Assembly: GCA_965220175.1 (NCBI GenBank)
Contig: OZ244814.1
Span: 1,735,045 to 1,799,044, forward strand
DNA: 64,000 nucleotides
Reading direction: 5' to 3'
DNA from: Chloroflexota bacterium
GTDB taxonomy: Bacteria; Chloroflexota; UBA11872; VXOZ01
Shown here: piece by piece, positions 16,330 through 45,109 of the stretch
How the letters are laid out: each line of letters starts with the position of its first letter
Numbering within the stretch: the stretch's first letter is position 1
Program-made: the position numbers and the translations under genes
The notes under the pieces: generated by a model
What the model saw: the letters and a program-made list of their open reading frames with translations, nothing else
Told to the model about the DNA's origin: nothing
Database searches by the model: none

Positions 16330-17193
16330 CTATTCTTCCGCCCCGGCTCCAATCAGAATCTGCACCACATCCGGGGTGCTCTCCAGACTGGCTGCTGCCA
16401 GCAGAGACCGGCCGTCAGCCAATCTGACATTCACGTCCGCACCGGCAGCGACGAGAAACCGGAACGCATCGACATTGCGCCAGCGCATTGCGGCGTACAG
16501 CAGCGGATCGTTGTTGCTGTCGCGCGCGTTCACATCCGCGCCGGCGTCCACGAGTATCCGCAGCGCCTCGGACTTATCCCAGAAAATCGCGGCATGCAGC
16601 AGCGGGTCGTTATTGCTATCGCGTGCGTTTACGTCCGCGCCGGCGGCTACGAGTATGCGCAGCGCCTCATCCCTGTCACGCCAGATCGCCGCGAAGAGTA
16701 GCGGATCGTTTTCGCTGTCGCGCGCGTTCACGTCTGCCCCGGCGTCCACCAGTATTTGCACCTTTTCGGGAGAGGCCCGCCAGACTGCGGTGTACAAATA
16801 CGGATCGCCCTGTTCGTTGCTGGCGTTCACCTCTCTGCCTTCGTTGACAAGCGCCTGCAACCCTTCCGCGCTGACGGAACTCCGCCAAATTGCGGCGTAA
16901 AGCTCGGGATCACCGGCAGGATAGGGCGTGGGCTGCGGCACCGGCGGCAATGTAGGCAGGGGTGCGAGTGTTGGTGTCGGCGACGGAGGCGAAGGCCGTG
17001 AGTCGCGATCTGTCCGCGGTTCGGGCGTCGGTCTGGGTGCTGTTCTTGCAGGCTCTGTGCTGCGGTTCGCAGCTTCCTGAGTATCCGCGGGACGCGCTGC
17101 GGGAGACTCGTCTTCGTAGAGAATGACCAACACGACGATACCAGCAGAGACTATGGCAACTGCAAGCACGAACCCCAAAACGTAGCGAAGCAT
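16330..17193 (-). CDS. membrane-anchored ankyrin-repeat protein
   Basis: N-terminal TM helix, ~60-aa Pro/Thr/Arg-rich linker, then >=6 tandem 33-aa ANK repeats (DPLL(F/H/Y)AAI..DxxEALRILVxAGADVNARD); ATG 17191-17193 with GGAGG RBS preferred over the TTG at 17208. Confidence 0.8.
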   Translation of the reverse strand: MLRYVLGFVLAVAIVSAGIVVLVILYEDESPAARPADTQEAANRSTEPARTAPRPTPEPRTDRDSRPSPPSPTPTLAPLPTLPPVPQPTPYPAGDPELYAAIWRSSVSAEGLQALVNEGREVNASNEQGDPYLYTAVWRASPEKVQILVDAGADVNARDSENDPLLFAAIWRDRDEALRILVAAGADVNARDSNNDPLLHAAIFWDKSEALRILVDAGADVNARDSNNDPLLYAAMRWRNVDAFRFLVAAGADVNVRLADGRSLLAAASLESTPDVVQILIGAGAEE

Positions 17194-17447
17194 GGCAACT
17201 GCCTCCAATCTCAGTGGTGCCCCGGTCCTGCAATAGCAGCCAGAGAGACCACTCTTGTTTGCGCCGCTATTCCTGCAGGTAGGACGCTTTCAAGAACGAG
17301 CAAGGCCGTACAGTGAGGATAGCACAGATTCGACCGCTCCCTCTGCCGCGAAGTATGTTATATACTACGGGTTGTCAGCACTGCAAGCCGTCTTATGCAA
17401 AAGGCAATGAGGCTCAGAGCCGAATAGCTGGAATGGAAGGTGGTCGC

Positions 17448-18816: not shown

Positions 18817-20016
18817 CTAACGGGATAGAACAGATTTGGCGGTTGCTTTCCCAGAATCCAGCGCCGACATGAGCCTGACAGAGACCTCGTTGGCGAGAAA
18901 ATAGCCGTTTGACGTGAGACGGATACAATTCTCGTCGACGGAGATTAGGTCGGCACGGGTCAATTCCTCCAACGCTTCTCCGAACAGGATGACAGGATCA
19001 ACGCCAAAACGAGTAGCAAAATCCTGGCGCAAAATCCCCCGTTGCAACAGGCGTAGATTGAGGAAGATGCTTTCCTCGATGGCGGTTTGTTGTGAGACGT
19101 CTTCTATGCGCAGAGTGGTGGATTCCCCACCAAGCGCGCGCTCGATATACTCGCGAGGCCGGTGAATCTCCTCGGTGCGTGTGCCGTGCGCGTACCCATG
19201 CGCGCCTGCGCCCAAGCCCAAGTACGGCTCGTAGCGCCAGTAGACTTGATTGTGCTGACCTGCCTTGCCCGGCAGGGACCAGTTTGAAATCTCGTAGTGT
19301 CCGTAACCGGCGTTTGCTAGCCCATCCGTCGCAAGAGCGTACATGTCCGCGGCAATGTCGTCGGCAGGGAGCTTGATTCGCCCGCTGCCTACCCAGCGGG
19401 CGTAGGGCGAAGTGGGCTCCACGGTGAGGCAATACAGCGACAGATGTTCCGGTGCAATAGCAAGAGCACAGTCTAGGTCATGCTGCCAGTCGGCGAACGA
19501 CTGGTTAGGTACGGCGTACATCAGATCGAGGCTGACGTTTCGAAATCCGGCTTGGCGCGCCAGTTGCAGAGCGCGCCGTGCCTGCGCGGCATCATGGTCG
19601 CGCCCCAACACCTTCAGCAGGCGGTCGTTAAAGCTCTGCACGCCAAATGAGAGGCGATTGACCCCGGCAGCGTGAAAGCCAGCAAAACGCGCGGCATCAG
19701 CCGTGACCGGATTGGCTTCGAGCGTGATCTCGCAACCGGCCGTGAGGGGCAACACAGCATCTACCGCTGCAAGGATCTGGGCTATGTGTTGCGGTTCCAG
19801 CAGCGAGGGGGTCCCGCCGCCGAAATACACCGTGCGCGCCGCTTGGAATCCGCTGGCCGCGCCCTCGCGGGCAACTACGCGACATAATGCCTCCACGTAC
19901 GCCGGCACGAGCGACTGCATGCCGGCGTACGTGTTAAAATCGCAGTACGGACACCGCACGCGGCAGAAGGGAATGTGCAAATAGACGGCGAGCGCGTTCT
20001 TGACTTCCACACCCAT
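18817..20016 (-). CDS. hemW: radical SAM heme chaperone HemW (oxygen-independent coproporphyrinogen-III-oxidase-like)
   Basis: CRVRCPYC (CxxxCxxC) radical-SAM cluster motif near N-terminus, HemN-like C-terminal domain, ~400 aa. Confidence 0.8.
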   Translation of the reverse strand: MGVEVKNALAVYLHIPFCRVRCPYCDFNTYAGMQSLVPAYVEALCRVVAREGAASGFQAARTVYFGGGTPSLLEPQHIAQILAAVDAVLPLTAGCEITLEANPVTADAARFAGFHAAGVNRLSFGVQSFNDRLLKVLGRDHDAAQARRALQLARQAGFRNVSLDLMYAVPNQSFADWQHDLDCALAIAPEHLSLYCLTVEPTSPYARWVGSGRIKLPADDIAADMYALATDGLANAGYGHYEISNWSLPGKAGQHNQVYWRYEPYLGLGAGAHGYAHGTRTEEIHRPREYIERALGGESTTLRIEDVSQQTAIEESIFLNLRLLQRGILRQDFATRFGVDPVILFGEALEELTRADLISVDENCIRLTSNGYFLANEVSVRLMSALDSGKATAKSVLSR

Positions 20017-30507: not shown

Positions 30508-30682
30508 TGATGGGCCTGGGCATGCAAGGATTGCGGCGATCGGCGCTAGCGTGTCCGCGCCGTGCACCGCGGCCGAACCGGATATGGCATCGGTCTGTCT
30601 GCGGTGCTGCGAGAGACTGAGGAAGTGGGTGGGCCGGGTGCGGGGCCTCGAAAGTACAAGGGTCAGTGTCGATTTGGCGCAG

Positions 30683-31558
30683 ATGACGGAATTCTACAAC
30701 CACTTTCAAAATTACGTGGCGCTGACCAAGCCAAAGATTCTATTACTGCTCCTGATAACGGCGCTGGGCGGGATGTTCCTGGCGAGCAATGGCGCGCCGG
30801 AATGGACGTTGGTTCTCGTAGTGCTCGCGGGTGGCGCATTGGGTTCCGGTGGCGCCAATGCCCTGAACCACTATATGGACAGAGATATCGATGAACAGAT
30901 GGTGCGCACAAGGAAACGGCCGGTTCCAAGAGGCGCCATCAGACCGCTGCATGCGTTGGTTTTCGGAGTTGCCCTGAATGTCTGTGCTTTCGCGCTGCTC
31001 TATACGTATGCCAACTTGCTGAGCGCAAGTTTGACGTTGGGGGCGACGCTCTTCTACGTCGTGGTATACACCGGACTCCTCAAGCGCACCACACCGCAGA
31101 ACATCGTCATCGGCGGCGCGGCGGGGTCGATTCCGCCGTTGGTGGGCTGGGCGGCTGTGACAGGGGGGCTTGCGCTGCCGGCATTCTACCTCTTTGCCGT
31201 GATCTTTCTCTGGACGCCGCCGCACTTCTGGGCGCTGGCGCTCATGTTGAAAGATGACTACGCGAGGGCAGGAGTGCCTATGCTGCCCGTCGTCTCCGGT
31301 GTCGATAAGACGAAGAAACACATCTTCATCTATACCCTGATTGTCGTTGCTTCGACGGTGTTGTTCTTTACTACAGGAGCATTGAGTGCGGTCTATTTGG
31401 CTCTTGCCGTAGCGCTAGGTGCTGGGTTCATTTACTTCGCTTGGCAGCTTTTGAATGGGCCCGGCATAGAGAAAGCCAAGGCGATGTATCTCTACTCTTT
31501 AGCCTACCTTGGGCTTTTCTATCTTGTCATAATGTTTGATAGTATACTCTTTGAATAG
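30683..31558 (+). CDS. ctaB: protoheme IX farnesyltransferase (heme O synthase)
   Basis: UbiA-family prenyltransferase, NALNHYMDRDIDEQMVRTRKRP Asp-rich motif; start at MTEFYNHF (ATG 30683). Confidence 0.85.
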   Translation: MTEFYNHFQNYVALTKPKILLLLLITALGGMFLASNGAPEWTLVLVVLAGGALGSGGANALNHYMDRDIDEQMVRTRKRPVPRGAIRPLHALVFGVALNVCAFALLYTYANLLSASLTLGATLFYVVVYTGLLKRTTPQNIVIGGAAGSIPPLVGWAAVTGGLALPAFYLFAVIFLWTPPHFWALALMLKDDYARAGVPMLPVVSGVDKTKKHIFIYTLIVVASTVLFFTTGALSAVYLALAVALGAGFIYFAWQLLNGPGIEKAKAMYLYSLAYLGLFYLVIMFDSILFE

Positions 31559-32127: not shown

Positions 32128-32637
32128 GTGGTACTGATCCGCAAACAGCAGTCTGCCGACATTCCCCAGATTCGAGAGGTCAACACGCGGGCCTTCGGCC
32201 AGCCCGATGAGGCAGATCTTGTAGACAAGCTCAGAGAACGCTGTCAGGATCTGGTGGAATTGGTGGCGGTTTTTGGCGACGAGATTATCGGGCATATCGT
32301 TTTCAGCCCAGCCACCGTCGAGTGCGAGGAACGAACGGTAACCGGAGCAGCCTTGGGACCCATGGCCGTGATGCCTCGGCATCAAAGGCAAGGGATCGGC
32401 ACCAAGCTGGTAACAAGCGGCGTCTCACTCCTGCAGCAGAATAACTGTCCGTTCCTGGTTGTCATCGGGCATCCGGATTTCTATCCTCGATTTGGGTTCA
32501 GGCCGGCGAGCCGGTTCGGTGTTCAATGCGACTGGGACGTTCCCGATGCGGTCTTCATGATGATGGTCCTCGCTGAGGAGGAGATGCAGGGAGTCGGGGG
32601 AAGGGTCAAGTTCAGGCCGGAGTTCTCGCAAGCCTGA
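32128..32637 (+). CDS. GNAT family N-acetyltransferase
   Basis: RHQRQGIGTKLV acetyl-CoA binding motif A (Q/RxxGxG/A). Confidence 0.7.
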   Translation: MVLIRKQQSADIPQIREVNTRAFGQPDEADLVDKLRERCQDLVELVAVFGDEIIGHIVFSPATVECEERTVTGAALGPMAVMPRHQRQGIGTKLVTSGVSLLQQNNCPFLVVIGHPDFYPRFGFRPASRFGVQCDWDVPDAVFMMMVLAEEEMQGVGGRVKFRPEFSQA

Positions 32638-32797
32638 CAGTCCACGACTTTCCTTTCTGCCTTCTTTCATCCTGCAGGATCCTGGACATCCCAATGCGAG
32701 GCTTTAGTGAGGAATGCCGCCAACCGCCGGCATGGTGCGGACGGGGAGCCAAAGGGCGAATCGCAGTCTCTTCAGAACTACATGGTGTTTACTCTCA

Positions 32798-33553
32798 ATG
32801 AAGCTTGACCAACGATTGCGCGCCCAGTGGTCGGAACACGTACAAGACTGGATTCAGCAAGACCAGTCAGTGCGCACCGGCATGCTCGATTCCTGGATGC
32901 TGGAGGCACTGGGAGATGTGTGCGGCCGCAACGTGCTCGACATCGGGTGTGGGGAGGGGCGTTTCTGTCGTGTCTTGAGCGGTCTGGGCGCCTTGGTCAC
33001 GGGTGTTGATCTTACTGAGCCATTGATTGAGCAAGCGCGTGGACTGGCTGGCGATGCCGGGACGTATCTCGTAGGCAATGCTGAAGACCTCGCCGGCATA
33101 GATGACGACAGTTTTGACCTGGCTGTGTCCTACATCGTCCTGGTGGACGTGCTCGACTATCGGCGGGCAATTCAGGCCGCCTTTCGCATACTGCGGCCGG
33201 GTGGGCGCTTCATCGTGTGCAATGTTCACCCTATGCGCATGGCCAAACCCAATGGCTGGGTCAAGCTCGGCGATCGCAAGCTCTTCTACGCCGTAGATGA
33301 CTACGCTGACGAGGGATCCCGGGAGTTTGAATGGTGGGGCGCCAACTTCATCAACATGCACCGGACGCTGTCAAGCTATATTACGGCTTTCTTGGATGCT
33401 GGCTTCGAGCTCGAGAGTCTGCTGGAACCAACGCCATCCGACGACCAACTCACTGCGATTCCCTGGCTAGCCGATGAGTTCCGTGTGCCTAACTTCGTCA
33501 TTTATGCGCTGCGGAAGCCTTTGGCCCAGAGGAATCCCACTCCCAAGGATTAA
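32798..33553 (+). CDS. class I SAM-dependent methyltransferase
   Basis: motif I VLDIGCGEGR, motif II/post-I acidic residue, ~250 aa; ATG 32798. Confidence 0.75.
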   Translation: MKLDQRLRAQWSEHVQDWIQQDQSVRTGMLDSWMLEALGDVCGRNVLDIGCGEGRFCRVLSGLGALVTGVDLTEPLIEQARGLAGDAGTYLVGNAEDLAGIDDDSFDLAVSYIVLVDVLDYRRAIQAAFRILRPGGRFIVCNVHPMRMAKPNGWVKLGDRKLFYAVDDYADEGSREFEWWGANFINMHRTLSSYITAFLDAGFELESLLEPTPSDDQLTAIPWLADEFRVPNFVIYALRKPLAQRNPTPKD

Positions 33554-34101
33554 CGCGTTACGTGATTGGCTGCAGACCAGGTTGGCCGGCCTAGCGGTGG
33601 CTCTCGGCGCAACGCACCGCCTAGACCGGTGCATCCCCGCCGCACCATTTTCGATGTCCCTCTACACCGGGTCATCATTGATAACCCCTGCGTTCAATCT
33701 AGACCTGCCTTGACCCGCCATGGATTCGACCACGCGTACTCCTCACCTGCTGCTTCAATCTCGTGTCTTGTTTTGAGAGTATGGGAACGTGTGGCGGTTG
33801 CTCTGAGCAAGGCAAGATGCTTGACGAGTGCTATTTCGTGCTATACCATGGGGCTGCGGTCAAGGAGGACCGTCCCAAACGTCAACACCGAAGGACGTTG
33901 AACATCGGGTAAGGAGGTTGCGCCAAGAACCGACTTTCTAACGTGTTTGCCGTTGCTCGTTCCGGTCTCTGCAGGAAGTAACAAGACGGTGCTGCTGCGG
34001 TGTCGTCAATTTGGCAAACCACCGTGGAGGCATGCGGGCTCGAGTTGCGGTCGTTTTGGGCGCTTGAGAAAGCGATTGTGAGAACCCTGGAGGTCGATCC
34101 A

Positions 34102-34296
34102 ATGAATAAAGGAGATTCTGTTTCTAAGCGAGAGGAAACAGTCTCCGCCGATCCGGAAAACGCGGATCCGGTCGGCGGTGAGTTGACCGAAGACGAATTG
34201 GACGAAGCCGTTGGTGGAGTTGGGAGTGATGAGCAGCCTCCTCAGTCCCCCGGCGAAGGCTCTGGCAGAGGTTGGTGGCACGATCCGAACGACTAG
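34102..34296 (+). CDS. secreted-peptide/RiPP-like precursor with double-glycine leader (64 aa)
   Basis: MNKGDSVSKREETVSADPENADPVGG-ELTEDELDEAVGG | VGSDEQPPQSPGEGSGRGWWHDPND; leader matches L(-12)-S/T-x-x-E(-8)-L(-7)-x-x-hydrophobic(-4)-x-G-G(-1); GGAGG RBS 8 nt before ATG; gene immediately precedes HlyD and C39-ABC exporter genes; alternative in-frame GTG start at 34000. Confidence 0.6.
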   Translation: MNKGDSVSKREETVSADPENADPVGGELTEDELDEAVGGVGSDEQPPQSPGEGSGRGWWHDPND

Positions 34297-34318
34297 GCTC
34301 ATCCTCGCAAGAGACTTG

Positions 34319-34363
34319 CAGGTACGATGGGATTTGCAGGAAACCCATCGTACCTGTTTTTTT
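34319..34363 (+). terminator. rho-independent terminator after precursor gene
   Basis: caggtacgatggg-(12-nt loop)-cccatcgtacctg perfect 13-bp stem followed by TTTTTTT, 22 nt after precursor stop. Confidence 0.75.
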
Positions 34364-34827
34364 GCCTGGCTGATAGAGGCAGCAGTATCTCGCTCCATGG
34401 GCGGCAGTGAGACTGAATAGCAGTTAACAACGCTGGGCGCTCGCACACTCACGAGTGCCGGCAACACAGGGTCCTCATAGCCAGCGTTAGGGGGTGCAGT
34501 CAAGGCCGTGCCGGACGGCTCAGATTGACGCCAGCCGGGAGCTTTACATGCGGACTGTGAGATCGGGCACATGCTGCTTGGCGCAACCTTAGCGCACACC
34601 TGCCGCGGCAAGCCCTGGTTCGCCAGTTCTTGCATGACCACGGAGACTGCGTCGCCGCTTCGAATTCCGAGCAAAACTCCGCGTGCACGAAGCACAGAAT
34701 AGGCAATAGGCAATTGGGTGCCTGCAAGACCGTGGCTGCCGAAGTCTCTTCCGTTCCGTCTGCGGCCAGCTTTACGCTAGAATAGCCCTCATACTGCGGT
34801 CAGCCTCGTAGACAAGAACCTGGAGCG

Positions 34828-35724
34828 GTGACGGTGACGGACAATCGTCGTCTCTTTCGTGAGGAAGCGCTTGCCCGCAGAGGCAAGTCCGAGTCTCTCA
34901 ATGGTCTGCTACGGGTTTCGGGGCCCCACGAGTGGATACTGCTGGTTTGCCTGGGTCTGGGTGTCTTGGGGTTCGTGGTCTGGGGGCTCTTCGGTAGTGT
35001 TGAGGAGAGTGTTCCGGCACGATGCGTGTTGGCACTGCCAGGAGATCGCTATGCGGTGATCGCTGAGTCCGCAGGCACGGTCGTGGATCTCCTGGTGGAT
35101 GCCGGCGACACGGTTGCTGCGGGGCAGCCTCTTGCCAGGCTCAGGTCACCGGAGCTGGGGCGAGAGATTGCGATTGCCCGCTCTCGGGTAGATTACCTGG
35201 AAAGCAAAGATACGACAACGTCCGAGGCCCTTGACGTGGCGCGGTCTGAGTTGACCGAGCTGGAGGCACGCGAGTCATTCGGCGAGTTTCTGACTACGCC
35301 TTACAGCGGTGTAGTTTCTGTCTACGAGTTATCCATCGGTCAGGCGGTTGCTGTTGGCGCCACGGTGGCGAGTGTCCGCGTTGCCGATCGGAACGAGTTC
35401 GAGGCGGTTGCCGTACTCTTGCCGGAGCGCGCACTGCGCCTTGCCGTCGGCATGGAGGCACGGGTGATGGCAATGGGACGTGACGGGGGAAGGAGTGCAG
35501 ACGCCCTCGAGGCCGAGGTGAGCTACGTAGCGCCGCATGCCGCCAGGCTGCCGCACTGGCTGACAGCCCTCGGATTCGCCGACGTCTCCCGCGGCTACAT
35601 TGTCTACTTGGCACTGCACGAGAGCCAAGATGCAACGTTTCAAGACGGCGATCCGTGCGAAGTGCGGATCATCCTGCGCAGAGCCTCACCTGTGCGCATG
35701 CTACTTGCGTCCGCGACCAATTAA
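34828..35724 (+). CDS. HlyD-family membrane fusion / secretion protein (NHLM-type)
   Basis: N-terminal RRLFREEAL + single TM, biotinyl-lipoyl-like hairpin, short coiled coil; GTG start (34828 or 34834 after GGAG). Confidence 0.7.
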   Translation: MTVTDNRRLFREEALARRGKSESLNGLLRVSGPHEWILLVCLGLGVLGFVVWGLFGSVEESVPARCVLALPGDRYAVIAESAGTVVDLLVDAGDTVAAGQPLARLRSPELGREIAIARSRVDYLESKDTTTSEALDVARSELTELEARESFGEFLTTPYSGVVSVYELSIGQAVAVGATVASVRVADRNEFEAVAVLLPERALRLAVGMEARVMAMGRDGGRSADALEAEVSYVAPHAARLPHWLTALGFADVSRGYIVYLALHESQDATFQDGDPCEVRIILRRASPVRMLLASATN

Positions 35725-35738
35725 GGCGGCTTTGAGGT

Positions 35739-37934
35739 ATGCCAGCGAGCGCTGCGGCGAAGCCAACGAAGAAGCGCATTCGCACGCCTCTCTTTCCACA
35801 GCTTGAAACGTCGGAGTGCGGCGCCGCCTGCCTGGGCATTCTGCTCGCCTACTTCGGTCGCTGGGAGTCGATGGAGACGCTGCGCGAAGCATGTGGAGTA
35901 AGCCGGGACGGCACCAGCGCAGCGGACATTGTACGGGCAGCGAGAAAGTTCGATCTGGAGGTCACGGGCTGGCGGCGAGAAGTCAGCCAACTAAAAGAAA
36001 TCGCTTTGCCCGCTGTTCTCTTCTGGGAATTCAATCATTTCCTGGTTCTCGAAGGAGTGAACAACGGGCAATATTTCTTGAATGACCCTGCCAATGGCCG
36101 GCGCAAGGTGAGTGAAGAGACTCTTGACCGGTCGTTTACGGGCGTCGTCCTTACGGCGAAGCCAGGGCCGAACTTCCGTCAAGGCGGCGCTCCGCCCGGT
36201 GTCACGCGCGAGCTCTTTGCGTGGTTGACAGATGTCAAGTCGCCTCTCGCATTTGTCTTAGCGTGTGGGTTGCTCCTGGCACTGCCAGGTCTGTTTCTCC
36301 CCATTCTTCTGAGCCTATTCGTTGACTATGTTCTTGACGGTGCGGGGAGGAATTGGGGGGCCTACCTTGTCACCGCCGCGGCTGTGACCGGTGGTCTTGC
36401 GTATCTTCTCACCTGGCTCCAGCAACACGCCTTGCGCAGACTAGCCGTTAGACTCTCGGTCGTTCACGCAGAACGCATGCTTTCGCGTCTATTCCGGCTG
36501 CCCATCGAATTCTTCGCGCACCGCTATGCGGGCGATCTGACGGCCCGGGTTCAGTTGATCAACGAGGTAACCAACGGCTCGTCGCGCCACTTCGTCGGCA
36601 TCATGATAGAGCTCGTCACGAGCGTGCTATTCCTGGTACTGATGGCCTTATTCGATCCATTGCTCGCCGCAGCCATTGGAGTCCTCGGTGCCGCGAACCT
36701 CGCACTCATGCGTATCCTGAGCCGGTTCCGCAGCGACGAGAATCGCCAGTTGCGGCGCGAGCAAACACTGCTCTTCGGTACCGGCGCGTCAATTCTTCGT
36801 GACATTGACTCTATGCACGCGACTGGCAGCGAGGACGATTACTTTGCGCGCTGGTCAGGGTACCAAGCGCGCGAGCTCATAGCTAGGCAGAAATTCGCGG
36901 AGCTCGGCTATATCATCGCGTCACTGCCGCGGTTTTTCTTGATACTTGGTGGCGTACTCGTGCTGGGACTCGGTGGTTGGCGCGTCATGTCCGCTGACAT
37001 GACGATCGGCATGCTCATGGGATTCTATGTGATTGCCGGCAATTTCCTGCAACCGATTGGCAGGTTCGTCCAGTTTGCCGACACGCTTCAAGTCCTGGAG
37101 GCCGACCTGCAGCGCATAGCAGACATTATGGCGGCACCCGAAGACCCCGCCCTTGCAACGAATGGAGATGCTGGGAACGGCAAGTTGGCGACACTGGGAG
37201 GCCGGTTGCACTTAGCGGGGCGGGTCGAGTTGCGCAATGTAACGTTTGGCTATCACCGCAACCGTCCGCCGCTTATCGAGGATTTTAGCCTCACCATCGA
37301 ACCCGGCCAACGGGTCGCGCTGGTCGGCCCTACAGGATCGGGGAAGTCGACACTCCTAAAGCTGGTTAGCGGCGAGTACTCACCGTGGTCGGGTGAAATC
37401 CTCTTCGACGGTGTGCCGCGCAACAGAATTCCGCGAGAGATACTCACGCGTTCAGTCTCGATTGTGGACCAGCAGGTATTCCTGTTTGCTGCATCGGTAC
37501 ATGACAATCTGACGATGTGGAACCCAACAGTGCCTGACGAACAGGTGGTGAGGGCCGCTCAGGACGCGTTGATTCACAGTGAGATAATGGGCCGGGAATT
37601 CGGCTATGACACGAGAGTGGAGGAGAGCGGAAAGAATTTCAGCGGCGGCCAGCGTCAGCGCTTGGAAATCGCTCGCGCCCTTGTTGACAATCCTTCCGTG
37701 CTCTTTCTCGATGAAGCTACCAGTACGCTTGATGCCGTGAGTGAGATGCGAATTGACGACAGTTTGCGGCGGCGCGGGTGCACCTGCATAATCGTCGCTC
37801 ATCGCTTGAGTACCATCCGCGATTGTGATCAGATTGTCGTGCTCGATCACGGCCGGCAGGTTCAATGCGGTACGCATGAGAGTCTCTTGGGCGATGAGCA
37901 GGGCCTTTACTACCAACTTATCCAAGCGCAATGA
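35739..37934 (+). CDS. ABC transporter with N-terminal C39 peptidase domain (bacteriocin-processing, ABC1)
   Basis: C39 catalytic Cys in LETSECGAACLGILLAYF and His in WEFNHFLVLEG, 6-TM domain, Walker A GPTGSGKST, signature FSGGQRQR, Walker B VLFLDEATS. Confidence 0.85.
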   Translation: MPASAAAKPTKKRIRTPLFPQLETSECGAACLGILLAYFGRWESMETLREACGVSRDGTSAADIVRAARKFDLEVTGWRREVSQLKEIALPAVLFWEFNHFLVLEGVNNGQYFLNDPANGRRKVSEETLDRSFTGVVLTAKPGPNFRQGGAPPGVTRELFAWLTDVKSPLAFVLACGLLLALPGLFLPILLSLFVDYVLDGAGRNWGAYLVTAAAVTGGLAYLLTWLQQHALRRLAVRLSVVHAERMLSRLFRLPIEFFAHRYAGDLTARVQLINEVTNGSSRHFVGIMIELVTSVLFLVLMALFDPLLAAAIGVLGAANLALMRILSRFRSDENRQLRREQTLLFGTGASILRDIDSMHATGSEDDYFARWSGYQARELIARQKFAELGYIIASLPRFFLILGGVLVLGLGGWRVMSADMTIGMLMGFYVIAGNFLQPIGRFVQFADTLQVLEADLQRIADIMAAPEDPALATNGDAGNGKLATLGGRLHLAGRVELRNVTFGYHRNRPPLIEDFSLTIEPGQRVALVGPTGSGKSTLLKLVSGEYSPWSGEILFDGVPRNRIPREILTRSVSIVDQQVFLFAASVHDNLTMWNPTVPDEQVVRAAQDALIHSEIMGREFGYDTRVEESGKNFSGGQRQRLEIARALVDNPSVLFLDEATSTLDAVSEMRIDDSLRRRGCTCIIVAHRLSTIRDCDQIVVLDHGRQVQCGTHESLLGDEQGLYYQLIQAQ

Positions 37935-37965
37935 TCCAGGATAACCACAACCGGGGAAGACTCAC

Positions 37966-40881
37966 GTGACGCAAAGACGATTCCAGCGGCTTGGCGAACT
38001 TGCAGTTTCAATTGGAGAACCGGTCTCCAGCGCCGGTAACCTTCCCATCCACTTGGACGATCCGGGTTCTGCCTGGTTCGTAGAGCGAGGCGCACTGGAT
38101 GTGTTTCTTTTCGAGTACCAGGATGAAGTGCCCATCTCTCGCTCGAAGCACATTCTCCGAGCTGAGCGCGGCCGGATGGTATTTGGAGTTGGAAAGTGCG
38201 GAATCTTCGCGGCGGTCGCCAAGGGCAGCCCGGGTTGCATGCTGCGGCGCGTAAGCATCGACCGTGTCCTCCAATATGAAATCGTAGACCAGTTGGCCGG
38301 TCAGATCGATGCGTGGGTCGCGGATTTCGCAGCCGCAGTGGCACTTCAGATTGAACCGCGCCCTCGACCCGACCTATTGCTTGATCACAGAGTGCCTGCC
38401 GAAGCGCTCGACGCAGCGGACGGCACAGTGGTGTCGAGCCGGCCTGGTGGGGTGGTGTGGGTCAATGTAGGCAATGCCGACGCGGCCTACTTGGGGACGG
38501 AAGAGCGAGACTCCGCGGGCGCCGGCGTGATACCGGTGACGTCCGATACCTGGCTCACGCTGCAGAGCCCGGCGCAAGTCTCGGGCAAGACGTCCCGCGC
38601 GTTGTGCATGGACGGGATACTGCTTGCGGCTCTCACCGACTTTCACCGGCTTGTCCTCGGAGCCGAGAAGATCAACCGCCTCTTGCTGCTGGCCGACGAG
38701 GCAAACGAGCAGACCGCCCTCGCCTTACATCGGCAACGTGACGAGGAACGTGCGAGACAGGGCCTCTTTGGCGTCCTTGGTTCCTCCCAGGCGGCGGTAG
38801 AAGAAAGCAACTCCGCGCTTTTGGCGGCCCTGCGCATCATTGGTGAACGAGAAGGCATTGCGTTTCAGGCTCCAACTCGCCGGCGGACATCGGATGGTGA
38901 GGAATTCGCTCTACAGGAAATCCTGGAAACATCGGGTGTGCGCAGCCGCAAGGTAAATTTGACGGCAGATGAATGCTGGTGGCTAGGAGACAGCGGCGCA
39001 ATGCTGGGCTTTCGGCGCGAGGACGGACATCCAATCGCGCTGCTACCGAGTGAAAGTGGGCGCTATAGGGCGCTGGACCCGATTTCCGGAGATTCTACCC
39101 GCCTCAATGCAGGCCGGGCAGCCGCAATTCACCACGACGCTTGGCAGTTCTACCGCTCCTTCCCGGTTGACCGTCCGGTAGGTACCCAGGACATTCTGGC
39201 ACTAGCCGCTAGGGGTGTGTCCGGTGACCTTATGCGGTTTGCGGGGGCCGGCCTCATCGCGAGCGTACTCGCCTTAGCTCCCGCGCTTGCGATCGGGCTT
39301 CTGGCGGACTCGATTCTGCCCGCGGCAAGCATCGGCATGTTAGTCCAGATTACAATCGCTCTCATCGTTCTTGCGGTTGTGGGCACGTTCCTGCAGATGC
39401 TGCGGGGGACGGCCATGATGCGGCTGGAAGCACGTGCCGTTGCGCGGGTGAGCGCGGCACTCTGGGACCGCTTGCTGTTGCTCCCTCCAAGTTTCTTCAG
39501 AGGCTTTACTGCAGGCGACCTCGCCGTGCGCATGGCGGCAATCCAAGTGCTGCGCGACCAGGTTTCGGGCGTGGTTGCCAACGCCGTAATCTCGTTTGCT
39601 TTTCTGCTCCCGTTGCTCATCATCCTCTTTATCTATGACACCGCTTTGGCATGGTTGATTCTCGGCACCGGGATGGTCTCGCTTGCCGTTACTCTGGTGT
39701 TCGGTCTCTTGCAAATTGGACCACAGCGTCGACTCTATGCCGTCTCCAGACGTCTCACCGGCGAGCTGTTCCAATATGTAAACGGCATCAGCAAGCTCCG
39801 GTCGGCCGGGGCCGAAGCGTCGGCGTTTGCGTCGTGGGCGCGGGGCTACCGCGAACAGCAGGTGGCGCAACTACAGATAGGCAAGCTCAATGAACACCTG
39901 GTCGCGTATAGCGCGGCGATTCCCGCTCTCATGGCTGCCGCCATCTTCGGCGTTGCCCTGTGGCAGGGCATTGACCGGCTCGAATTGGGGAGTTTTCTCG
40001 TCGTCTATGCGGTTTCCATCCAGTTCTATACAGCAGTAATCGGACTGGGCTACTCATTTGAGGTCATGGCGGCAGTCTTGCCGGGCTACGAACAGATTAA
40101 GCCGGTGACAACCGCCGTTCCTGACGGCCGCGGGGCTCACCGCGCGTCCGTCGAACTCAGCGGCGAAGTGCGATTCGACCACGTGAGTTTCCAATACGCC
40201 AAGGAAGGTCCGCGGATCATCGATGAAGTCTCTGTGCGCGCGCGTCCCGGCGAGTTCATCGCCATCGTCGGTGAATCAGGCGCAGGCAAAAGTACACTGG
40301 TGCGCCTGGCGCTGGGGCTTGAAGTCCCAACAGCGGGGGGAATCTACTATGACGGTCGCGACCTTGCCCATCTCAATCGACGGGCCGTGCGCCGCCAGAT
40401 AGGTGTCGTGACCCAGGATGGCGCCCTCAGGCCCGGCAACCTCCTGGACAACATCATCGGTCTTGGGGACGATTTGACGATCGATGACGCTTGGCGCGCG
40501 GCCAAACTTGCCGCCGTGGATGGCGACATCGCCGCTATGCCCATGCAGATGTTTACCGCGGTAGGCGACAGAGCGTCCACCTTCTCCGGCGGGCAAATTC
40601 AACGCATCAGGATTGCGGCAGCCCTCGTGCGGGAACCGCGCATTGTCTTTCTGGATGAGGCCACGAGTTGGCTCGACGCCAAGAGCCAGGCCCAGGTCAT
40701 GGAAGGCATTGAGAAGCTCGCCGCCACCCGCATAGTCATCGCCCACCGGCTCTCCACTATCCGCAAGGCGCAGCGCATCTACGTGCTTCACCAGGGAAGG
40801 GTGGTACAGGAGGGCAGCTTCATCGAGCTCTTCCAGACGGAAGGCCTCTTTCGAGACCTGGTGCAACGGCAAATGACGTAA
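37966..40881 (+). CDS. ABC transporter ATP-binding/permease with ~420-aa N-terminal cNMP-binding-like extension (ABC2)
   Basis: N-terminal beta-roll-like segment (FVERGALDVFLFEY...RGRMVFGVG), 6 TM, Walker A GESGAGKST, signature FSGGQIQR, Walker B IVFLDEATS; no C39 domain. Confidence 0.8.
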   Translation: MTQRRFQRLGELAVSIGEPVSSAGNLPIHLDDPGSAWFVERGALDVFLFEYQDEVPISRSKHILRAERGRMVFGVGKCGIFAAVAKGSPGCMLRRVSIDRVLQYEIVDQLAGQIDAWVADFAAAVALQIEPRPRPDLLLDHRVPAEALDAADGTVVSSRPGGVVWVNVGNADAAYLGTEERDSAGAGVIPVTSDTWLTLQSPAQVSGKTSRALCMDGILLAALTDFHRLVLGAEKINRLLLLADEANEQTALALHRQRDEERARQGLFGVLGSSQAAVEESNSALLAALRIIGEREGIAFQAPTRRRTSDGEEFALQEILETSGVRSRKVNLTADECWWLGDSGAMLGFRREDGHPIALLPSESGRYRALDPISGDSTRLNAGRAAAIHHDAWQFYRSFPVDRPVGTQDILALAARGVSGDLMRFAGAGLIASVLALAPALAIGLLADSILPAASIGMLVQITIALIVLAVVGTFLQMLRGTAMMRLEARAVARVSAALWDRLLLLPPSFFRGFTAGDLAVRMAAIQVLRDQVSGVVANAVISFAFLLPLLIILFIYDTALAWLILGTGMVSLAVTLVFGLLQIGPQRRLYAVSRRLTGELFQYVNGISKLRSAGAEASAFASWARGYREQQVAQLQIGKLNEHLVAYSAAIPALMAAAIFGVALWQGIDRLELGSFLVVYAVSIQFYTAVIGLGYSFEVMAAVLPGYEQIKPVTTAVPDGRGAHRASVELSGEVRFDHVSFQYAKEGPRIIDEVSVRARPGEFIAIVGESGAGKSTLVRLALGLEVPTAGGIYYDGRDLAHLNRRAVRRQIGVVTQDGALRPGNLLDNIIGLGDDLTIDDAWRAAKLAAVDGDIAAMPMQMFTAVGDRASTFSGGQIQRIRIAAALVREPRIVFLDEATSWLDAKSQAQVMEGIEKLAATRIVIAHRLSTIRKAQRIYVLHQGRVVQEGSFIELFQTEGLFRDLVQRQMT

Positions 40882-41091
40882 TTGGACAGTCTGTGAACAC
40901 TGCTGGGCAACACGACAAGTGGCCACTGTGCCAGCACTCGAGGTCGCGAATTGGACTTTCAGATTACGCGGCGCCAAGTTGCCAAAGCCGTAAGCAGCGC
41001 CTGCGCCGCATAACGCATGGAGCCATTTGGTGAGCGGGTGCGCGGTTCACTGCCAATGCGTCCGCGTCAGCCTACGTTGAAGGCACGTATA

Positions 41092-42927
41092 TTAGGCCGT
41101 TACCTTGAGACACAAGGTCACGGGTGTGCCGGCGGCAAGGTCCACCGTGGCGGCACGTTGGCGTCGACTTTCGAGCGTTACCTGCCGGATGGGCAGCGCC
41201 GCACCTGAACTCTTGTCATTCACGGAGGCAACACTGTCAGGCAGCAGCAACGAAAGCTCGGAGATGTTGGCGCCGGATTCCAGCGTGATGAAGTGGGAGT
41301 CGCCTTGGGCATAGGACTCGGTCAGGCGCACGCCCGCGCGGGCGCGGGAGAAACTGGAGTAGTTCTCCTGGTTTTCGAAGCGGCAGCCGGCTGCAATTGC
41401 CCCTTCCATGCCCAGCTCCAGGGCGTGGCGCGAGGCTCTGACGTGGTCCTGGGGCCCGGCAGCGTAGACCGGATGGAAGTTCGCGATCTGCATCACGTGC
41501 CAGCGGGTGGCCGCGGATTCGGCAAAGCGGGCGAGTTCCACGCCGTATTCCTCTGACGTGAGGCCCACCATGCCTTCGGCGCGGTCGGGTGTCTCGGCCA
41601 TTGGCCCAGCCAGCAGGTCCTCGTGCCGGCCGATGGTCTGGCTCTCGTCCCATTGGGCGGGCATATGCCACATTTCCGTCAGACCCACGCCGTGCTGGAA
41701 ATACGGCATGCAGAGGCCGGTGCCGATCATGTAGGGGCCGTAATTCTTGTCGCGCCGCATGCGGGGGTCGTGGGAAGCAAAGTGGGTCGGCGTATACCAG
41801 CCGAAGTCCAACATGATTTGTATGAGCGGATAGCCCGTCCACTGGCAGCCGTGGCTGCAAATGGTCTCCACGTCGAGGCCGGTTTCGCGGCGAAATACGT
41901 CCCAAGATTCCTGCAGGTTGGCGCGTAACGCCGGTAGGTAATTCTCGTTCAGGTCCTCCGGCGTGCGGCCGTAGCGTACCTGGGCGCCGTTCTCTTCTAT
42001 GGCGTACTGGGTGATGCTGGTCAAGTCCACTTCGATTGACACGGCATGACCGCGCGCGTGCCACTCTTTCATCAAGTCGCCGTGATAGCGGCTGAACGGC
42101 GCCCGGTAGAAGGTAAGCAGCGCGTCGTACGATTCCACAATGTCCACGAGCACGGGCGCGCCACTTTCGCCGCAGCCGTCACCCTTAATGAACCACAGCG
42201 CCGGCGCCGCGTCGGGGAAGTACCACAGGCGCGGCAGCGGTGTGTCCGACAGCGCTTCCGCCACCAGGGTCCGGAGGATGTCCTGATGGACGTCCGCCAC
42301 CGGGATATCCCGGGTGGTCTTCTCTGAGAGAGCAAAGAAACTGTAGAGGTGGCGCGGGCCTTTCAGCGGTCCCATGTCGCGCAGGGGACGTTCGTGTAAG
42401 TCGCCGTCTCCGTGTCGAAAGTTGACAACAGCCTGGCAAAGGTCGTAGCCGTAGAGCCAGGCCTTGCCCTCGCCCAGATAAGCCTCAACGATGCCGGGGC
42501 CAATAAGGTTGTCCTCAGCATCTCGCAGCTCCGCGACCGTCTCGCCGCCGTTCAAGGGCTGAGATATCTCATCCGGGCAGAGCAGCGGCAGGCTCCCATG
42601 TTCCCATCGTGGGAGCTGCCGGACTGCAAGCCACGCGTCCGTCACCGGCTCGCCTGCCGTGATGCCGAAGGCGCCTAGCAGAGCGGGATCGGGAGCCAAG
42701 GCGATAAGCGAAGTGCCGCCGGCCACCGCCGCAGCCAGCCGCTCCGCTGACTCGTTGCTCAGACCGCTGCCGGCGATAACAATGAGTGCTACGTCCGGCG
42801 GCGGGTCTTCGAAGTCGGCCGCAGCTTGCGCATCCAGCCAGGGAAATCCCTCACAGCGGAGGATTTCCGCACTCACCGGGGTAGTAAGCGCATCGTCGGC
42901 ATACAGGAGCAGGATGGGCTGATTCAT
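41092..42927 (-). CDS. hypothetical protein (612 aa; N-terminal flavodoxin/ThuA-like alpha/beta region, C-terminal unknown)
   Basis: no diagnostic motif recognised; start placed at MNQPILLLYADD (cat 42925-42927) 10 nt after C45 gene stop. Confidence 0.45.
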   Translation of the reverse strand: MNQPILLLYADDALTTPVSAEILRCEGFPWLDAQAAADFEDPPPDVALIVIAGSGLSNESAERLAAAVAGGTSLIALAPDPALLGAFGITAGEPVTDAWLAVRQLPRWEHGSLPLLCPDEISQPLNGGETVAELRDAEDNLIGPGIVEAYLGEGKAWLYGYDLCQAVVNFRHGDGDLHERPLRDMGPLKGPRHLYSFFALSEKTTRDIPVADVHQDILRTLVAEALSDTPLPRLWYFPDAAPALWFIKGDGCGESGAPVLVDIVESYDALLTFYRAPFSRYHGDLMKEWHARGHAVSIEVDLTSITQYAIEENGAQVRYGRTPEDLNENYLPALRANLQESWDVFRRETGLDVETICSHGCQWTGYPLIQIMLDFGWYTPTHFASHDPRMRRDKNYGPYMIGTGLCMPYFQHGVGLTEMWHMPAQWDESQTIGRHEDLLAGPMAETPDRAEGMVGLTSEEYGVELARFAESAATRWHVMQIANFHPVYAAGPQDHVRASRHALELGMEGAIAAGCRFENQENYSSFSRARAGVRLTESYAQGDSHFITLESGANISELSLLLPDSVASVNDKSSGAALPIRQVTLESRRQRAATVDLAAGTPVTLCLKVTA

Positions 42928-42937
42928 AGCAGATTCC

Positions 42938-43999
42938 TCAGTTTCTAACTGCGGTTGCCTGGGCATCGAAGATGAACACTTCAAGATCATTCTGGCAAGG
43001 GTAACCGTCACTCGCGAGCAATGTGCGGTCGCGAGGGATGGCTATCAGGCCAAACGCACTATGCATTGGCCCGTGCTGGCACATTGAGACCGGGTCGGCG
43101 TGGGCGCGTGCGATGCGCGCGACTTGCTCCAGGGTATGGGGTTCTTCCTGGGTGAGCTCTGCCAGCAGCGCCCAGCGGCCTTCAGTGTTGGCGCGAAAGT
43201 CAGCGTTTGTTCGACTGTCGACGTCCTGCATTTCAGGCGTCACATAGTGGTTCGCGCACCAGATGGCGTCGCCTTCCATCCGCCGCACCGCCATGCGGGT
43301 GGCTGACCTTTCTACCACTACCGCGTTCTCCGCCGGATCGGTGAGCATGATGTTCATGCCGTGGTTCATGACCGGCGTACTCTCGCAGAGGGCGATGCCT
43401 TCTTCCACGTCGGCGCAGTACTGCAAGAGGTAGCGCTGCAGGAGATTAGTTGGGATGCCATTCTCCCAATCCTGGTCGGAATTCATGATGCTGCTGCCGC
43501 CAAAGGTCAGGCCGGTGTCGTTGACGCCCGGCCCCATCCAGGGCGCGCCCGGACCGGAGACGCAGATGAAGGGGTGGCCCTTATCGGGTCTGATGTCCCA
43601 GAAGACGTAGGTGCCGATGGAATCCTTGCCCACGTCATTGGACTTGTAGTGCACGACACCGTGCTCGTCGGTGCGCAGGGCTACGTTCGTGCAGCCTACG
43701 GCGGTGCGCCCGACCTCCATGCAAGATGCGTATGCCAGAATGTCATCGCGCTGTAGTCCCGCGCCGTCGGCGATACCCTGCATTTCCTCAAGCGATTCAG
43801 GAAAGACTCGCTCGACGTTGCGCGCCATTTGTTGGACAACACGTTCGCGATGGGCAGCGTCGATTTGCCTCCCAAAGACCACGTTCTCGATTGCGGAATT
43901 CACGGCTGCGGCACAGGTAGTGCCATGCTGCAATCCCATTTCGTAAGGAGTGCCGGATAACTCAACGCGGCGCATGGCTTCGTAATCCTTTACTAGCAT
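42938..43999 (-). CDS. C45-family Ntn-hydrolase / acyl-CoA:6-aminopenicillanic-acid-acyltransferase-like protein
   Basis: Gly-Cys autoproteolytic site context (RTAVGCTNVAL) with Cys nucleophile, overall length and secondary pattern of linear-amide C-N hydrolase / IAT family. Confidence 0.6.
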   Translation of the reverse strand: MLVKDYEAMRRVELSGTPYEMGLQHGTTCAAAVNSAIENVVFGRQIDAAHRERVVQQMARNVERVFPESLEEMQGIADGAGLQRDDILAYASCMEVGRTAVGCTNVALRTDEHGVVHYKSNDVGKDSIGTYVFWDIRPDKGHPFICVSGPGAPWMGPGVNDTGLTFGGSSIMNSDQDWENGIPTNLLQRYLLQYCADVEEGIALCESTPVMNHGMNIMLTDPAENAVVVERSATRMAVRRMEGDAIWCANHYVTPEMQDVDSRTNADFRANTEGRWALLAELTQEEPHTLEQVARIARAHADPVSMCQHGPMHSAFGLIAIPRDRTLLASDGYPCQNDLEVFIFDAQATAVRN

Positions 44000-44143
44000 T
44001 CACAGTGTGCGGTCCATTGCACACTGGGCCTGCTGCTGAAATGCGATTTTGTTCGGGTCTCTCACCCTCACGCCGGCCCTCTCCCTCGGGGAGAGGATGC
44101 AGACGGAGAGTTCGGCAATGCGAAAGCATGCATTGGCACGATA

Positions 44144-45109
44144 CTATGCGTGTCGGATGCGCTCGAAGTAGTTGCACGGGATGATGTTTAGCGGCCCAAA
44201 ACGGCGCTCGATTTCGTCGTAGAAGAGGTTTATGCCCAGGTTGTCCGCCGCGGCATGCGGCAGGCGCACCACCGAAACGCCGACTTCCTTTGCCGCGCTC
44301 GCCACGGCCGCGGACGCCCCAATCTGCAGCACGGTGTTGATCCCGGCCTTAGCGAACAGTGGTTGTGCTGCCGGCGGCCAAAGCCACCCACCGGCATCTT
44401 GGATGATGTAACGGCCCAATGGCGTATCCGGTTCTCCCGCGAGTACCAAAGAGTACGCGCCGTGGCGCGCGGCGCCCTGGAATTCCGGAATCGTCATCAG
44501 CGCTTCTTCAGCGTCGGCGAGTGTCTGCGGCTGCAGCTCGTCGAATACCTGCTTAATGCCTACACCGATATAGAGATCCTGGGGTGTGTGAATCTGCACA
44601 AAGGGGATTTCAAAGAGCCGCGCCATATCCGGACCCATGCGGTGCGGCATGTCGTCGTAGCCGGTGCGCCAATCATCTATCCACGGCAATAAGACCTTTT
44701 CCGCCTCTTTGCGCGGTACACCCTCACGGACAAAGATGTCGATGTTGATGAGGGTGATGTCGTCAATATGCGAACGGCCGATGCCCGTGCCGCTCGTATG
44801 GTGGGCAATGATGGCGTCGAGCGGCACGCCCTTGTCCTTGAGGCGGTCGGCAATGAGGAATTCGTCCGTGCCGATGTTGATGCCCGCGAGGGCGGTGTAG
44901 ACCTCAGCATCTTCGGGGCCGTTGACGATACGCACGTCGCCGTAGGGATTACGCAGGCGCTCGTGGTCGAAGTACGGCTTCTTCCACTCAGGCAAGGCTT
45001 CGAATTCTTGCTGGCGACGCGCAAGTTCAGCGTCAAGGGTCTCTTGACTGCGGGGATCGAGGGCGATGCCGAGTTCTATGGCGGCTTCGTAGAGTTCGCG
45101 GACAGTCAT
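44144..45109 (-). CDS. Nif3-like (DUF34) dinuclear-metal-centre protein, with N-terminal extension
   Basis: GVPLDAIIAHHTSG resembles the conserved Nif3/YbgI A-D-A-V-I-V-H-H motif; C-terminal LPHAAADNLG weakly matches second His cluster. Confidence 0.4.
   Translation of the reverse strand: MTVRELYEAAIELGIALDPRSQETLDAELARRQQEFEALPEWKKPYFDHERLRNPYGDVRIVNGPEDAEVYTALAGINIGTDEFLIADRLKDKGVPLDAIIAHHTSGTGIGRSHIDDITLINIDIFVREGVPRKEAEKVLLPWIDDWRTGYDDMPHRMGPDMARLFEIPFVQIHTPQDLYIGVGIKQVFDELQPQTLADAEEALMTIPEFQGAARHGAYSLVLAGEPDTPLGRYIIQDAGGWLWPPAAQPLFAKAGINTVLQIGASAAVASAAKEVGVSVVRLPHAAADNLGINLFYDEIERRFGPLNIIPCNYFERIRHA

Follow-up and report, generated by a model that had tools for sequence, protein, structure and literature searches.

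The question raised by the 64,000-nucleotide stretch of Chloroflexota DNA analysed here (contig OZ244814.1, positions 1,735,045 to 1,799,044; the whole stretch is referred to below as the window) is what kind of peptide is encoded by the short open reading frame (ORF) at 34102-34296 (+), which precedes the genes of an ATP-binding cassette (ABC) export system, and what becomes of that peptide. Based on the sequence and its homologues, the frame was interpreted, with slightly better than even confidence, as a double-glycine (GG) precursor that would be the dedicated cargo of the adjacent NHLM-type exporter and would yield a leader-cleaved, probably unmodified, secreted anionic signal or effector. 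The role of the product as a secreted signal or effector is proposed with moderate confidence; the evidence for its export and cleavage is considerably stronger.

Retranslation of the forward strand placed the precursor gene at 34102-34296 (64 codons plus stop), with a product consisting of MNKGDSVSKREETVSADPENADPVGG, ELTEDELDEAVGG and VGSDEQPPQSPGEGSGRGWWHDPND in succession and with the core part encoded by 34219-34296 including the stop codon. These coordinates and the 25-residue core had been given in an earlier note on this DNA and were found to be exact. The program-made ORF list opens the frame at GTG 34000, and translation of 34000-34296 (+) gives a frame containing MNKGDSVSKREETVSADPENADPVGGELTEDELDEAVGGVGSDEQPPQSPGEGSGRGWWHDPND, followed by the stop; all homologues begin at the methionine encoded by ATG 34102, which puts codon 40 (Val, core residue 1) at 34219 and the end of the stop codon at 34296. 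A word-indexed search recovered nine homologues with 56-88% identity to the window peptide, and a profile search of 1.8 billion cluster representatives, together with a second indexed search using a broader alignment, extended these to approximately 55 homologue clusters at 90% identity, all of 53-70 aa and all either unnamed or annotated as 'hypothetical'. The family comprises approximately 74 members, so the ORF is conserved in related genomes, where the earlier note had regarded a lack of conservation as fatal to its interpretation. Nei-Gojobori estimates of the ratio of nonsynonymous to synonymous substitution rates (dN/dS) for five orthologues were 0.13-0.56 for the whole gene, 0.02-0.33 for the last 16 leader residues, 0.15-0.27 for the C-terminal decapeptide, and 0.3-1.07 for the middle of the core. 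The peptide ORF is a real gene under purifying selection.

The first 39 residues (34102-34218, +) were assigned to a leader peptide on the basis of logo fit and conservation, and the last 13 of these, ELTEDELDEAVGG, constitute a predicted double-glycine export and cleavage signal. The 13-position logo published for NHLP, N11P and TIGR01847 has acidic residues at positions 1, 4 and 6, Leu at 2 and 7, Ser/Thr at 3, Val/Leu at 10, and GG at 12-13 (PMC2887384). ELTEDELDEAVGG fits every position but 10, where Ala is present with Val following at 11, and carries the double-glycine leader motif of C39-ABC exporters. The string EDEL.EAVGG is invariant among close relatives, and the 13-residue block with the following x-Gly is the best conserved part of the leader region across the family. 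The N-terminal 24 residues of the leader are variable, and no second conserved motif of the maturase-recognition kind was found in the family alignment besides the export 13-mer. The leader has two GG pairs, of which the second is invariant in an alignment of 13 sequences and replaced in a few of the approximately 74 members (GA in P0056), whereas the first (residues 25-26) is SG, DG or missing in relatives. The earlier proposal that cleavage follows the second pair agrees with both the published logo and this difference in conservation, and a predicted cut after Gly39 is well supported on bioinformatic grounds.

The predicted mature core, VGSDEQPPQSPGEGSGRGWWHDPND (34219-34293, +), was derived from translation, family comparison and the predicted cleavage site. 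It has 25 residues, a net charge of -4, a monoisotopic mass of 2690.14 Da, a pI of 4.26 and a grand average of hydropathy of -1.76. A recount bore out the composition reported previously, with three Asp, two Glu, one Arg and one His and no Cys, Thr, Lys, Tyr or Phe. The absence of Cys, Thr and Lys is correct for this orthologue and does not extend to the family, in whose cores Thr (5.4%), Lys (0.7%) and Cys (0.5%) all occur. Motif counts were performed on 56 distinct cores and the position table was prepared from the 44 cores of exactly 26 aa. The core ends in a conserved octapeptide, G-W-W-H-D-P-N-D (34270-34293, +), which in the family has the form G-W-W-x-[D/N]-P-N-x. Both tryptophans and the proline are invariant (56/56), the D/N position is kept in 53 cores, and the G before WW and the N after P are each kept in 51. 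WW is followed by Asn in 27 cores, by His in 10, by Ser and Thr in 7 each, by Asp in 3, and by Leu and Lys in 1 each. The 'WWH' or W-W-H-D-P string, which had been put forward as the conserved motif, is a local variant of G-W-W-x-[D/N]-P-N-x; its His is variable, and the actual unit extends to the end of the peptide. The family consensus is V-G-T-V-D-E-Q-G-P-Q-N-T-S-D-G-S-G-S-G-W-W-N-D-P-N-R, in which Gly2, the acidic pair at 5-6, Gly19, Trp20, Trp21, Asp/Asn23, Pro24 and Asn25 are invariant or nearly so and are followed by exactly one residue. Core length is 25-26 aa in nearly all members (range 22-28), the C-terminal motif stands at a fixed distance from the cleavage site, and net charge ranges from -6 to 0 with a median of -4.

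Comparison of the peptide and 13 family members with Pfam and NCBIfam produced only noise-level matches to GG-leader families (mersacidin, plantaricin C, ComC), in line with the view that the peptide fits no described family. Literature searches with motif strings and sample accessions found no paper in the library covered, and an exact look-up of the window peptide returned no record. The peptide belongs to an undescribed family and represents a novel type of cargo for an export system already known. An N-x-S/T sequon (e.g. QNTS, core positions 11-13) is present in 15 of the 44 cores of 26 aa and absent from the window core, so a glycosylation sequon is no feature of the family. Frameshifted or truncated relatives, among them peptides with altered C-termini, were encountered (P0007, P0011, P0048), as were split ABC export genes on long-read contigs (L019, L020); these are probably assembly errors and, less probably, pseudogenes. 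In the Joint Genome Institute (JGI) metagenomes, a scan with a narrow motif pattern returned zero matches and one with a broad pattern returned two loci. One of these, L017, is no family member, its GRGWWYDPN being a chance occurrence within a protein of 667 aa; the other, L018 (MKWU01016993.1), is a true member from a metagenome of the sponge Aplysina aerophoba.

The peptide gene is followed on the same strand by three export genes. The first (34828-35724, +) encodes a 298-aa HlyD-type membrane fusion (adaptor) protein with an N-terminal transmembrane segment, a truncated coiled coil, and Pfam matches to HlyD_3 and HlyD_D23; against TIGR03794 it scores 87 bits (cut-off 156), aligned to profile positions 6-113 only. 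The second (35739-37934, +) encodes ABC1, a 731-aa protein with C39 peptidase, permease and ATPase domains in the PCAT arrangement. ABC1 scores 895.6 bits against the equivalog model TIGR03796 (cut-off 853.3), matches Pfam Peptidase_C39 with E = 4.8e-33, has an intact catalytic set (oxyanion Gln21, Cys27, His100, Asp116), and aligns end to end over residues 20-727 with PCAT1 (4ry2, E = 3e-87). The third (37966-40881, +) encodes ABC2, a 971-aa protein that scores 724.5 bits against the equivalog model TIGR03797 (cut-off 709.4) and consists of one or more cyclic-nucleotide-binding-like N-terminal domains (approximately 11-270), a degenerate, Cys-less C39-like domain (approximately 283-415), a permease and an ATPase. 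The fold of the N-terminal extension was revealed by a structure model only; a Pfam search of the extension at E = 10 found nothing, and a homologue search with it returned fragmentary ORFs only. The locus accordingly has a cognate ABC exporter with an intact C39 domain and an adaptor, and the peptide gene is associated with the TIGR03794/03796/03797 cassette, the adaptor match being partial. Haft et al. (2010, PMC2887384) identified this cassette in phylogenetic profiles with NHLP and Nif11-type precursors.

The association of peptide and exporter was examined in the genomic contexts of the family. In Chloroflexota, the order peptide, adaptor (295-298 aa), ABC1, ABC2 is found in six species-level loci (the window, L001, L004, L024, L003 and L022); L002 encodes the same protein as L001, and the L006 contig ends early. 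In L003 and L022 the four-gene block, with its promoter region (33554-41091 in the window), is inverted in place relative to both flanks, and no inverted repeats that might explain the inversion were found at the cassette borders. A second lineage has the order adaptor (391-415 aa), ABC1, ABC2 (976 aa), peptide, on contigs of 7.05 and 2.38 Mb and on shorter ones, with ClpB, HtrA, DUF5723, MetK and PcrB in the flanks. The 298-aa adaptor of the window is without most of the coiled-coil hairpin that these lineage-2 counterparts possess; as a guess, such a short adaptor would fit an envelope without a TolC-type outer-membrane channel partner. Between the two lineages, identity is 46% for the core, 42% for ABC1, 32-33% for ABC2 (32% at full length including the N-terminal extension), 26% for the leader and 18% for the adaptor, so that the core is conserved as much as ABC1 and more than ABC2, leader and adaptor. 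The linkage of exactly these four genes is conserved across two lineages whose exporter proteins are 18-42% identical. Within the Chloroflexota, the peptide is 53-62% identical (88% in the closest relative, L001) versus 75-80% for ABC1 and 81-82% for argininosuccinate lyase; the peptide thus diverges faster than either protein, and its changes cluster towards the N-terminus of the leader and in the middle of the core.

A third set of contexts has the peptide gene with no exporter within 10 kb (L007-L010, L015 and L018; L025/L026), which means that the linkage of peptide and exporter is not universal. In L007-L010, L015 and L018 the peptide gene is always followed by a gene for a 133-145-aa NTF2/SnoaL-like protein, a constancy that may be mere shared gene order of close relatives. 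L025/L026 (10001-10162) derive from a high-GC (70%), BamE-encoding diderm and have GA instead of GG; there the gene lies between those for a HAMP-SpoIIE phosphatase and a LysR protein, with a STAS gene nearby, a neighbourhood that is a possible hint of a signalling context. No gene except the exporter is common to more than one context.

The peptide gene has expression signals of its own. A predicted sigma-70-like promoter (TTGACG-17 nt-TACCAT, 33821-33849, +) was located by consensus scan, and its -35 TTGAC and spacing are invariant in seven Chloroflexota loci. It is followed by a promoter-proximal 5' leader or operator block (33854-33945, +; containing GCGGTCAAGGAGGACCGTCCCAAACGTCAACACCGAAGGACGTTGAA and, further on, TAAGGAGGTT) of approximately 90 nt, which is conserved nearly base for base in the same number of Chloroflexota loci and in which two AAGGAGG-like elements occur along with a partial palindrome, GGTTAC…GTAAC. 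Consensus folding of this block gave two short hairpins and no compensatory changes or covariation, so an RNA structure is unsupported, and a search of Rfam with 33400-34900 gave one sub-threshold snoRNA match only; the block might control expression of the peptide, either as an operator or as a leader RNA. A Shine-Dalgarno sequence, GGAGG (34089-34093, +), was read 8 nt before the ATG. The longer CTGGAGG is kept in the window, L001, L004 and L006, while L003 diverges at the site. Directly 3' of the gene, folding and an inverted repeat (I4) indicated an intrinsic terminator with a 14-bp stem and U7 (34318-34363, +); the folding energy of the whole 79-nt segment is -39.1 kcal/mol (z = -6.5). 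L001, L004 and L006 retain the hairpin, and L003 has a hairpin of other sequence in the same place (z = -7.7). An invariant -10-like box, TAGAAT (34778-34783, +), lies approximately 45 nt upstream of the adaptor gene. The surrounding TAGAATAG is invariant in five loci, the remainder of the 530-bp peptide-adaptor spacer is unconserved, and the box is a probable part of a separate promoter for the export operon. The promoter and terminator of the peptide gene together with the separate TAGAAT box suggest two transcription units, one for the peptide alone and one for the exporter operon.

According to the mechanism proposed, the peptide gene would be transcribed from its own promoter and end at its own terminator, which would allow the peptide to be made in excess over the transporter operon. 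The amphipathic acidic signal ELTEDELDEAVGG would form the leader helix recognised by the C39 domain of ABC1, which would cut after Gly39, and the 25-residue core would then be translocated by ABC1, probably with ABC2, and by the short adaptor. ABC2 may contribute its non-catalytic C39-like domain for substrate docking and its cyclic-nucleotide-binding-like sensor, which might gate export. Because conservation in the leader is confined to the export 13-mer and the gene is not accompanied by one for a maturase, the product is most likely unmodified. The hydrophilic, anionic core, its fixed length and its cross-lineage C-terminal motif are more in keeping with a ligand that has a specific, conserved partner than with a membrane-active toxin or bacteriocin, and the suggestion in the earlier note of a secreted, signal-like peptide was judged a reasonable reading.

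Several observations weigh against this interpretation. Two context types have no exporter near the peptide gene, as described above. The Chloroflexota loci contain no linked gene for a receptor of the peptide, be it a histidine kinase or a cytoplasmic regulator, and no kinase/regulator pair was found within 10 kb of any of them or among the scanned window proteins. ABC1 and ABC2 both have canonical Walker B, signature and H-loop sequences, and the question of an ABC1/ABC2 heterodimer was counted on this side as well. The C-terminal motif is conserved across distant lineages, whereas signals usually diversify between species, and a conserved core motif would also be expected from a core-recognising maturase encoded elsewhere.

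The last point corresponds to a competing explanation in which the gene encodes the precursor of a ribosomally made peptide with post-translational modifications (RiPP). Its maturase would be encoded elsewhere, W-W-x-[D/N]-P-N would be the core recognition or modification site (for a radical S-adenosylmethionine [SAM] three-residue cyclophane, Trp prenylation, or Asp/Asn hydroxylation), and export would follow modification. The invariant aromatic-x-Asx sequence and the fixed core length resemble motifs of core-directed enzymes such as those of triceptide and darobactin chemistry, and W-x-[D/N] is chemically suited to a radical-SAM cyclophane as in triceptides, darobactin and dynobactin. In addition, precursors of this export system may lie far from their modification genes (Haft et al., PMC2887384). 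However, a RiPP maturase was found neither in the window nor next to any relative: no radical SAM/SPASM protein, LanM, YcaO, ATP-grasp enzyme, P450 or ABBA-type peptide prenyltransferase was found within 10 kb of any locus, across five context types, and none of the approximately 50 larger annotated ORFs of the window is a RiPP maturase. The sole radical SAM protein of the window is HemN-like (18820-20016), and its remaining larger ORFs are of housekeeping type. The leader also has no conserved element beyond the export 13-mer of the kind needed by leader-dependent RiPP enzymes, only one GG peptide is encoded in the window, and the core is conserved rather than hypervariable. This explanation was thus considered rather unlikely. 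The more specific idea that the GNAT protein (32128-32637) and/or the SAM-dependent methyltransferase (32714-33553) modifies the exported peptide derives from their same-strand, adjacent positions in the window and L001. Neither gene is near the peptide in lineage 2 or other contexts, the GNAT gene is not beside the cassette in L022 and L024, and in L003 and L022 the methyltransferase gene lies downstream of ABC2 and converges on it from the opposite strand, the inversion having affected only the four-gene cassette. As the peptide gene additionally has its own promoter, well apart from the methyltransferase stop, modification by either enzyme is highly improbable.

An alternative considered as unlikely as the unlinked maturase is that the peptide is a miniature, anionic, microcin-like antibacterial that leaves the producer through the PCAT and adaptor and enters competitors by way of a receptor for the C-terminal motif (Trojan-horse entry), with self-protection by export or by an unlinked gene. 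The export logic is the same as that of class II microcins, which are reported to be far commoner than once thought (PMC12219008). The statement in the earlier note that class II bacteriocins are cationic was too general, since the class IIb microcins are rich in Gly and Ser, have almost no Cys and a net negative charge, and combine a GG leader, a C39-ABC transporter, an HlyD-type adaptor and a C-terminal uptake motif that is conserved (PMC10233263); the window peptide is therefore not set apart by its composition alone. Its unusual features are the small size, the hydrophilicity, the conserved core and the lack of an immunity gene. The core has 25 aa and 2.7 kDa versus 60-90 aa and 5-10 kDa in class II microcins, contains no hydrophobic segment, and is conserved across lineages rather than diversifying. 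No siderophore-attachment genes accompany it, and no adjacent small membrane immunity ORF was found, there being no conserved or hydrophobic ORF in 33554-34101 or 34297-34827 and no conservation of the spacer as coding sequence. The remaining readings, namely that the frame is a chance ORF or that the true cut is made at the first GG (after Gly26), are effectively excluded: coding-type conservation and regulatory signals argue against the former, and the latter, suggested by the presence of a GG at residues 25-26, is contradicted by the loss of that pair in relatives and by the near-invariance of the second pair and its 13-residue logo. A secreted, probably unmodified signal or effector peptide was retained as the preferred interpretation.

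The family has so far been found only in uncultured bacteria. Members with a traced source come from sponge metagenomes (Aplysina aerophoba, SB06xx), and others from Tara or unidentified marine metagenomes. A scan of a genome collection recovered the family in Chloroflexota metagenome-assembled genomes represented by OZ244803.1 and VXOZ01000167.1 (isolate SB0662_bin_44), and the SB06xx bin series includes the sponge-specific Entoporibacteria (PMC7883664). The family may be a feature of sponge-associated bacteria, habitat being established for some members only. The window itself encodes an ankyrin-repeat protein (16333-17208) and a sulfatase (52717-54126). Genes of both types are enriched in sponge symbionts, and their presence is consistent with the sponge-metagenome origin of relatives. 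A more speculative extension, to which only a small probability was assigned, is that the peptide is a holobiont signal: the four-gene module would be ancient, would be kept in phylogenetically distant sponge-associated bacteria and would secrete a 26-residue anionic peptide whose G-W-W-x-D-P-N end, conserved across lineages, addresses a common host or interspecies receptor, with release gated by a small ligand on the cyclic-nucleotide-binding-like domain of ABC2. If this were true, a substrate would for the first time be known for a HetC-like PCAT.

With regard to neighbouring genes, a trio at 41092-45109 (-) borders the cassette in all Chloroflexota loci on contigs long enough to include this region. 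It encodes a 611-639-aa protein with a weak DUF4350 match only, a C45 autoproteolytic acyltransferase/hydrolase, and a 321-aa protein without a match. The 611-aa flank protein is 86-91% identical between species, a value greater than or about equal to that for argininosuccinate lyase. The 639-aa neighbour in the window and a 685-aa neighbour in lineage 2 were compared and are not homologous. The gene for a membrane UbiA-family prenyltransferase (30551-31558 in the window) is found beside the cassette in the window, L001, L003 and L006 and is absent from L022 and L024.

The locus is of wider interest because the NHLM-type three-gene exporter is widespread and its known cargoes are long-leader, heavily modified peptides, while the cargo of orphan C39-ABC exporters outside Firmicutes and Enterobacteria is largely uncharted and the HetC substrate is still missing. 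It offers a compact, tractable case, with a short leader, an apparently unmodified and synthesisable 25-mer, a conserved pharmacophore and an exporter of its own that carries a sensor-like domain. Should the peptide act as a signal or host effector, sponge symbioses would be found to use a new communication molecule; should an enzyme encoded elsewhere modify it, the peptide would present a new RiPP core motif.

Among known systems, the NHLP and Nif11 systems (PMC2887384) share with the window the exporter families, an acidic 13-residue 'motif 2' ending in GG, and a precursor gene adjoining the cassette. The window leader differs in having 39 aa, versus averages of 83 and 70 aa, and in lacking nitrile-hydratase or Nif11 homology: neither the nitrile hydratase alpha nor the Nif11 leader (TIGR03793, TIGR03795, TIGR03798) was recognized, with no NCBIfam or Pfam match at E = 10 for 13 members. 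In place of hypervariable, Cys/Ser/Thr-rich cores, the window has a conserved, acidic, essentially Cys-free core encoded in single copy, with no LanM or cyclodehydratase and with a truncated adaptor that scores below the TIGR03794 cut-off; the family cores are likewise not hypervariable, the window shows no paralogue expansion, and no maturase was found in the window or the related loci. Class II microcins, especially IIb (MccE492, MccH47, MccM), resemble the system in their GG leader, PCAT and adaptor, anionic, Gly/Ser-rich, Cys-poor core and conserved C-terminal element. The window core, however, is a quarter to half their size (their 60-90-aa range is not reached) and strongly hydrophilic, it has no adjacent immunity or siderophore-modification genes, and it ends in W-W-x-D-P-N-x in contrast to the microcin Gly/Ser tract ending in Ser. 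ComC/CSP-ComAB and BlpC pheromones are likewise short, unmodified GG-leader peptides encoded in single copy and exported by a C39-ABC protein with an accessory protein, and three of 13 family members gave noise-level ComC matches through the leader. Unlike these pheromones, the window peptide has no linked two-component histidine kinase and response regulator, is predicted to be anionic when mature rather than cationic or hydrophobic, and has a conserved motif rather than pherotypes. For Trp-modified RiPPs, no adjacent radical SAM-SPASM enzyme or ComQ-like prenyltransferase was found at these loci. Since a defining feature was tested and found lacking each time, the peptide is placed outside NHLP, NHLP-Burk, N11P, class II microcins as currently defined, and ComC-type pheromones. 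The streptococcal XIP/ComS system also has a short active C-terminal segment with a W-W pair and operates without a GG leader, through PptAB export, re-import and ComR binding; to our knowledge it has no sequence relationship to the window peptide. A final parallel is HetC of Nostoc PCC 7120, a PCAT-type exporter with a cyclic-nucleotide-binding domain that is needed for cell differentiation and implicated in regulatory-peptide export (PMC10986499), and thus a precedent for regulatory export by such a protein. HetC carries the cyclic-nucleotide-binding and C39 domains on one polypeptide and has no adjacent adaptor and no known substrate, whereas in the window the sensor-like domain is located on the peptidase-less ABC2 and the gene for the putative substrate lies adjacent to the exporter.

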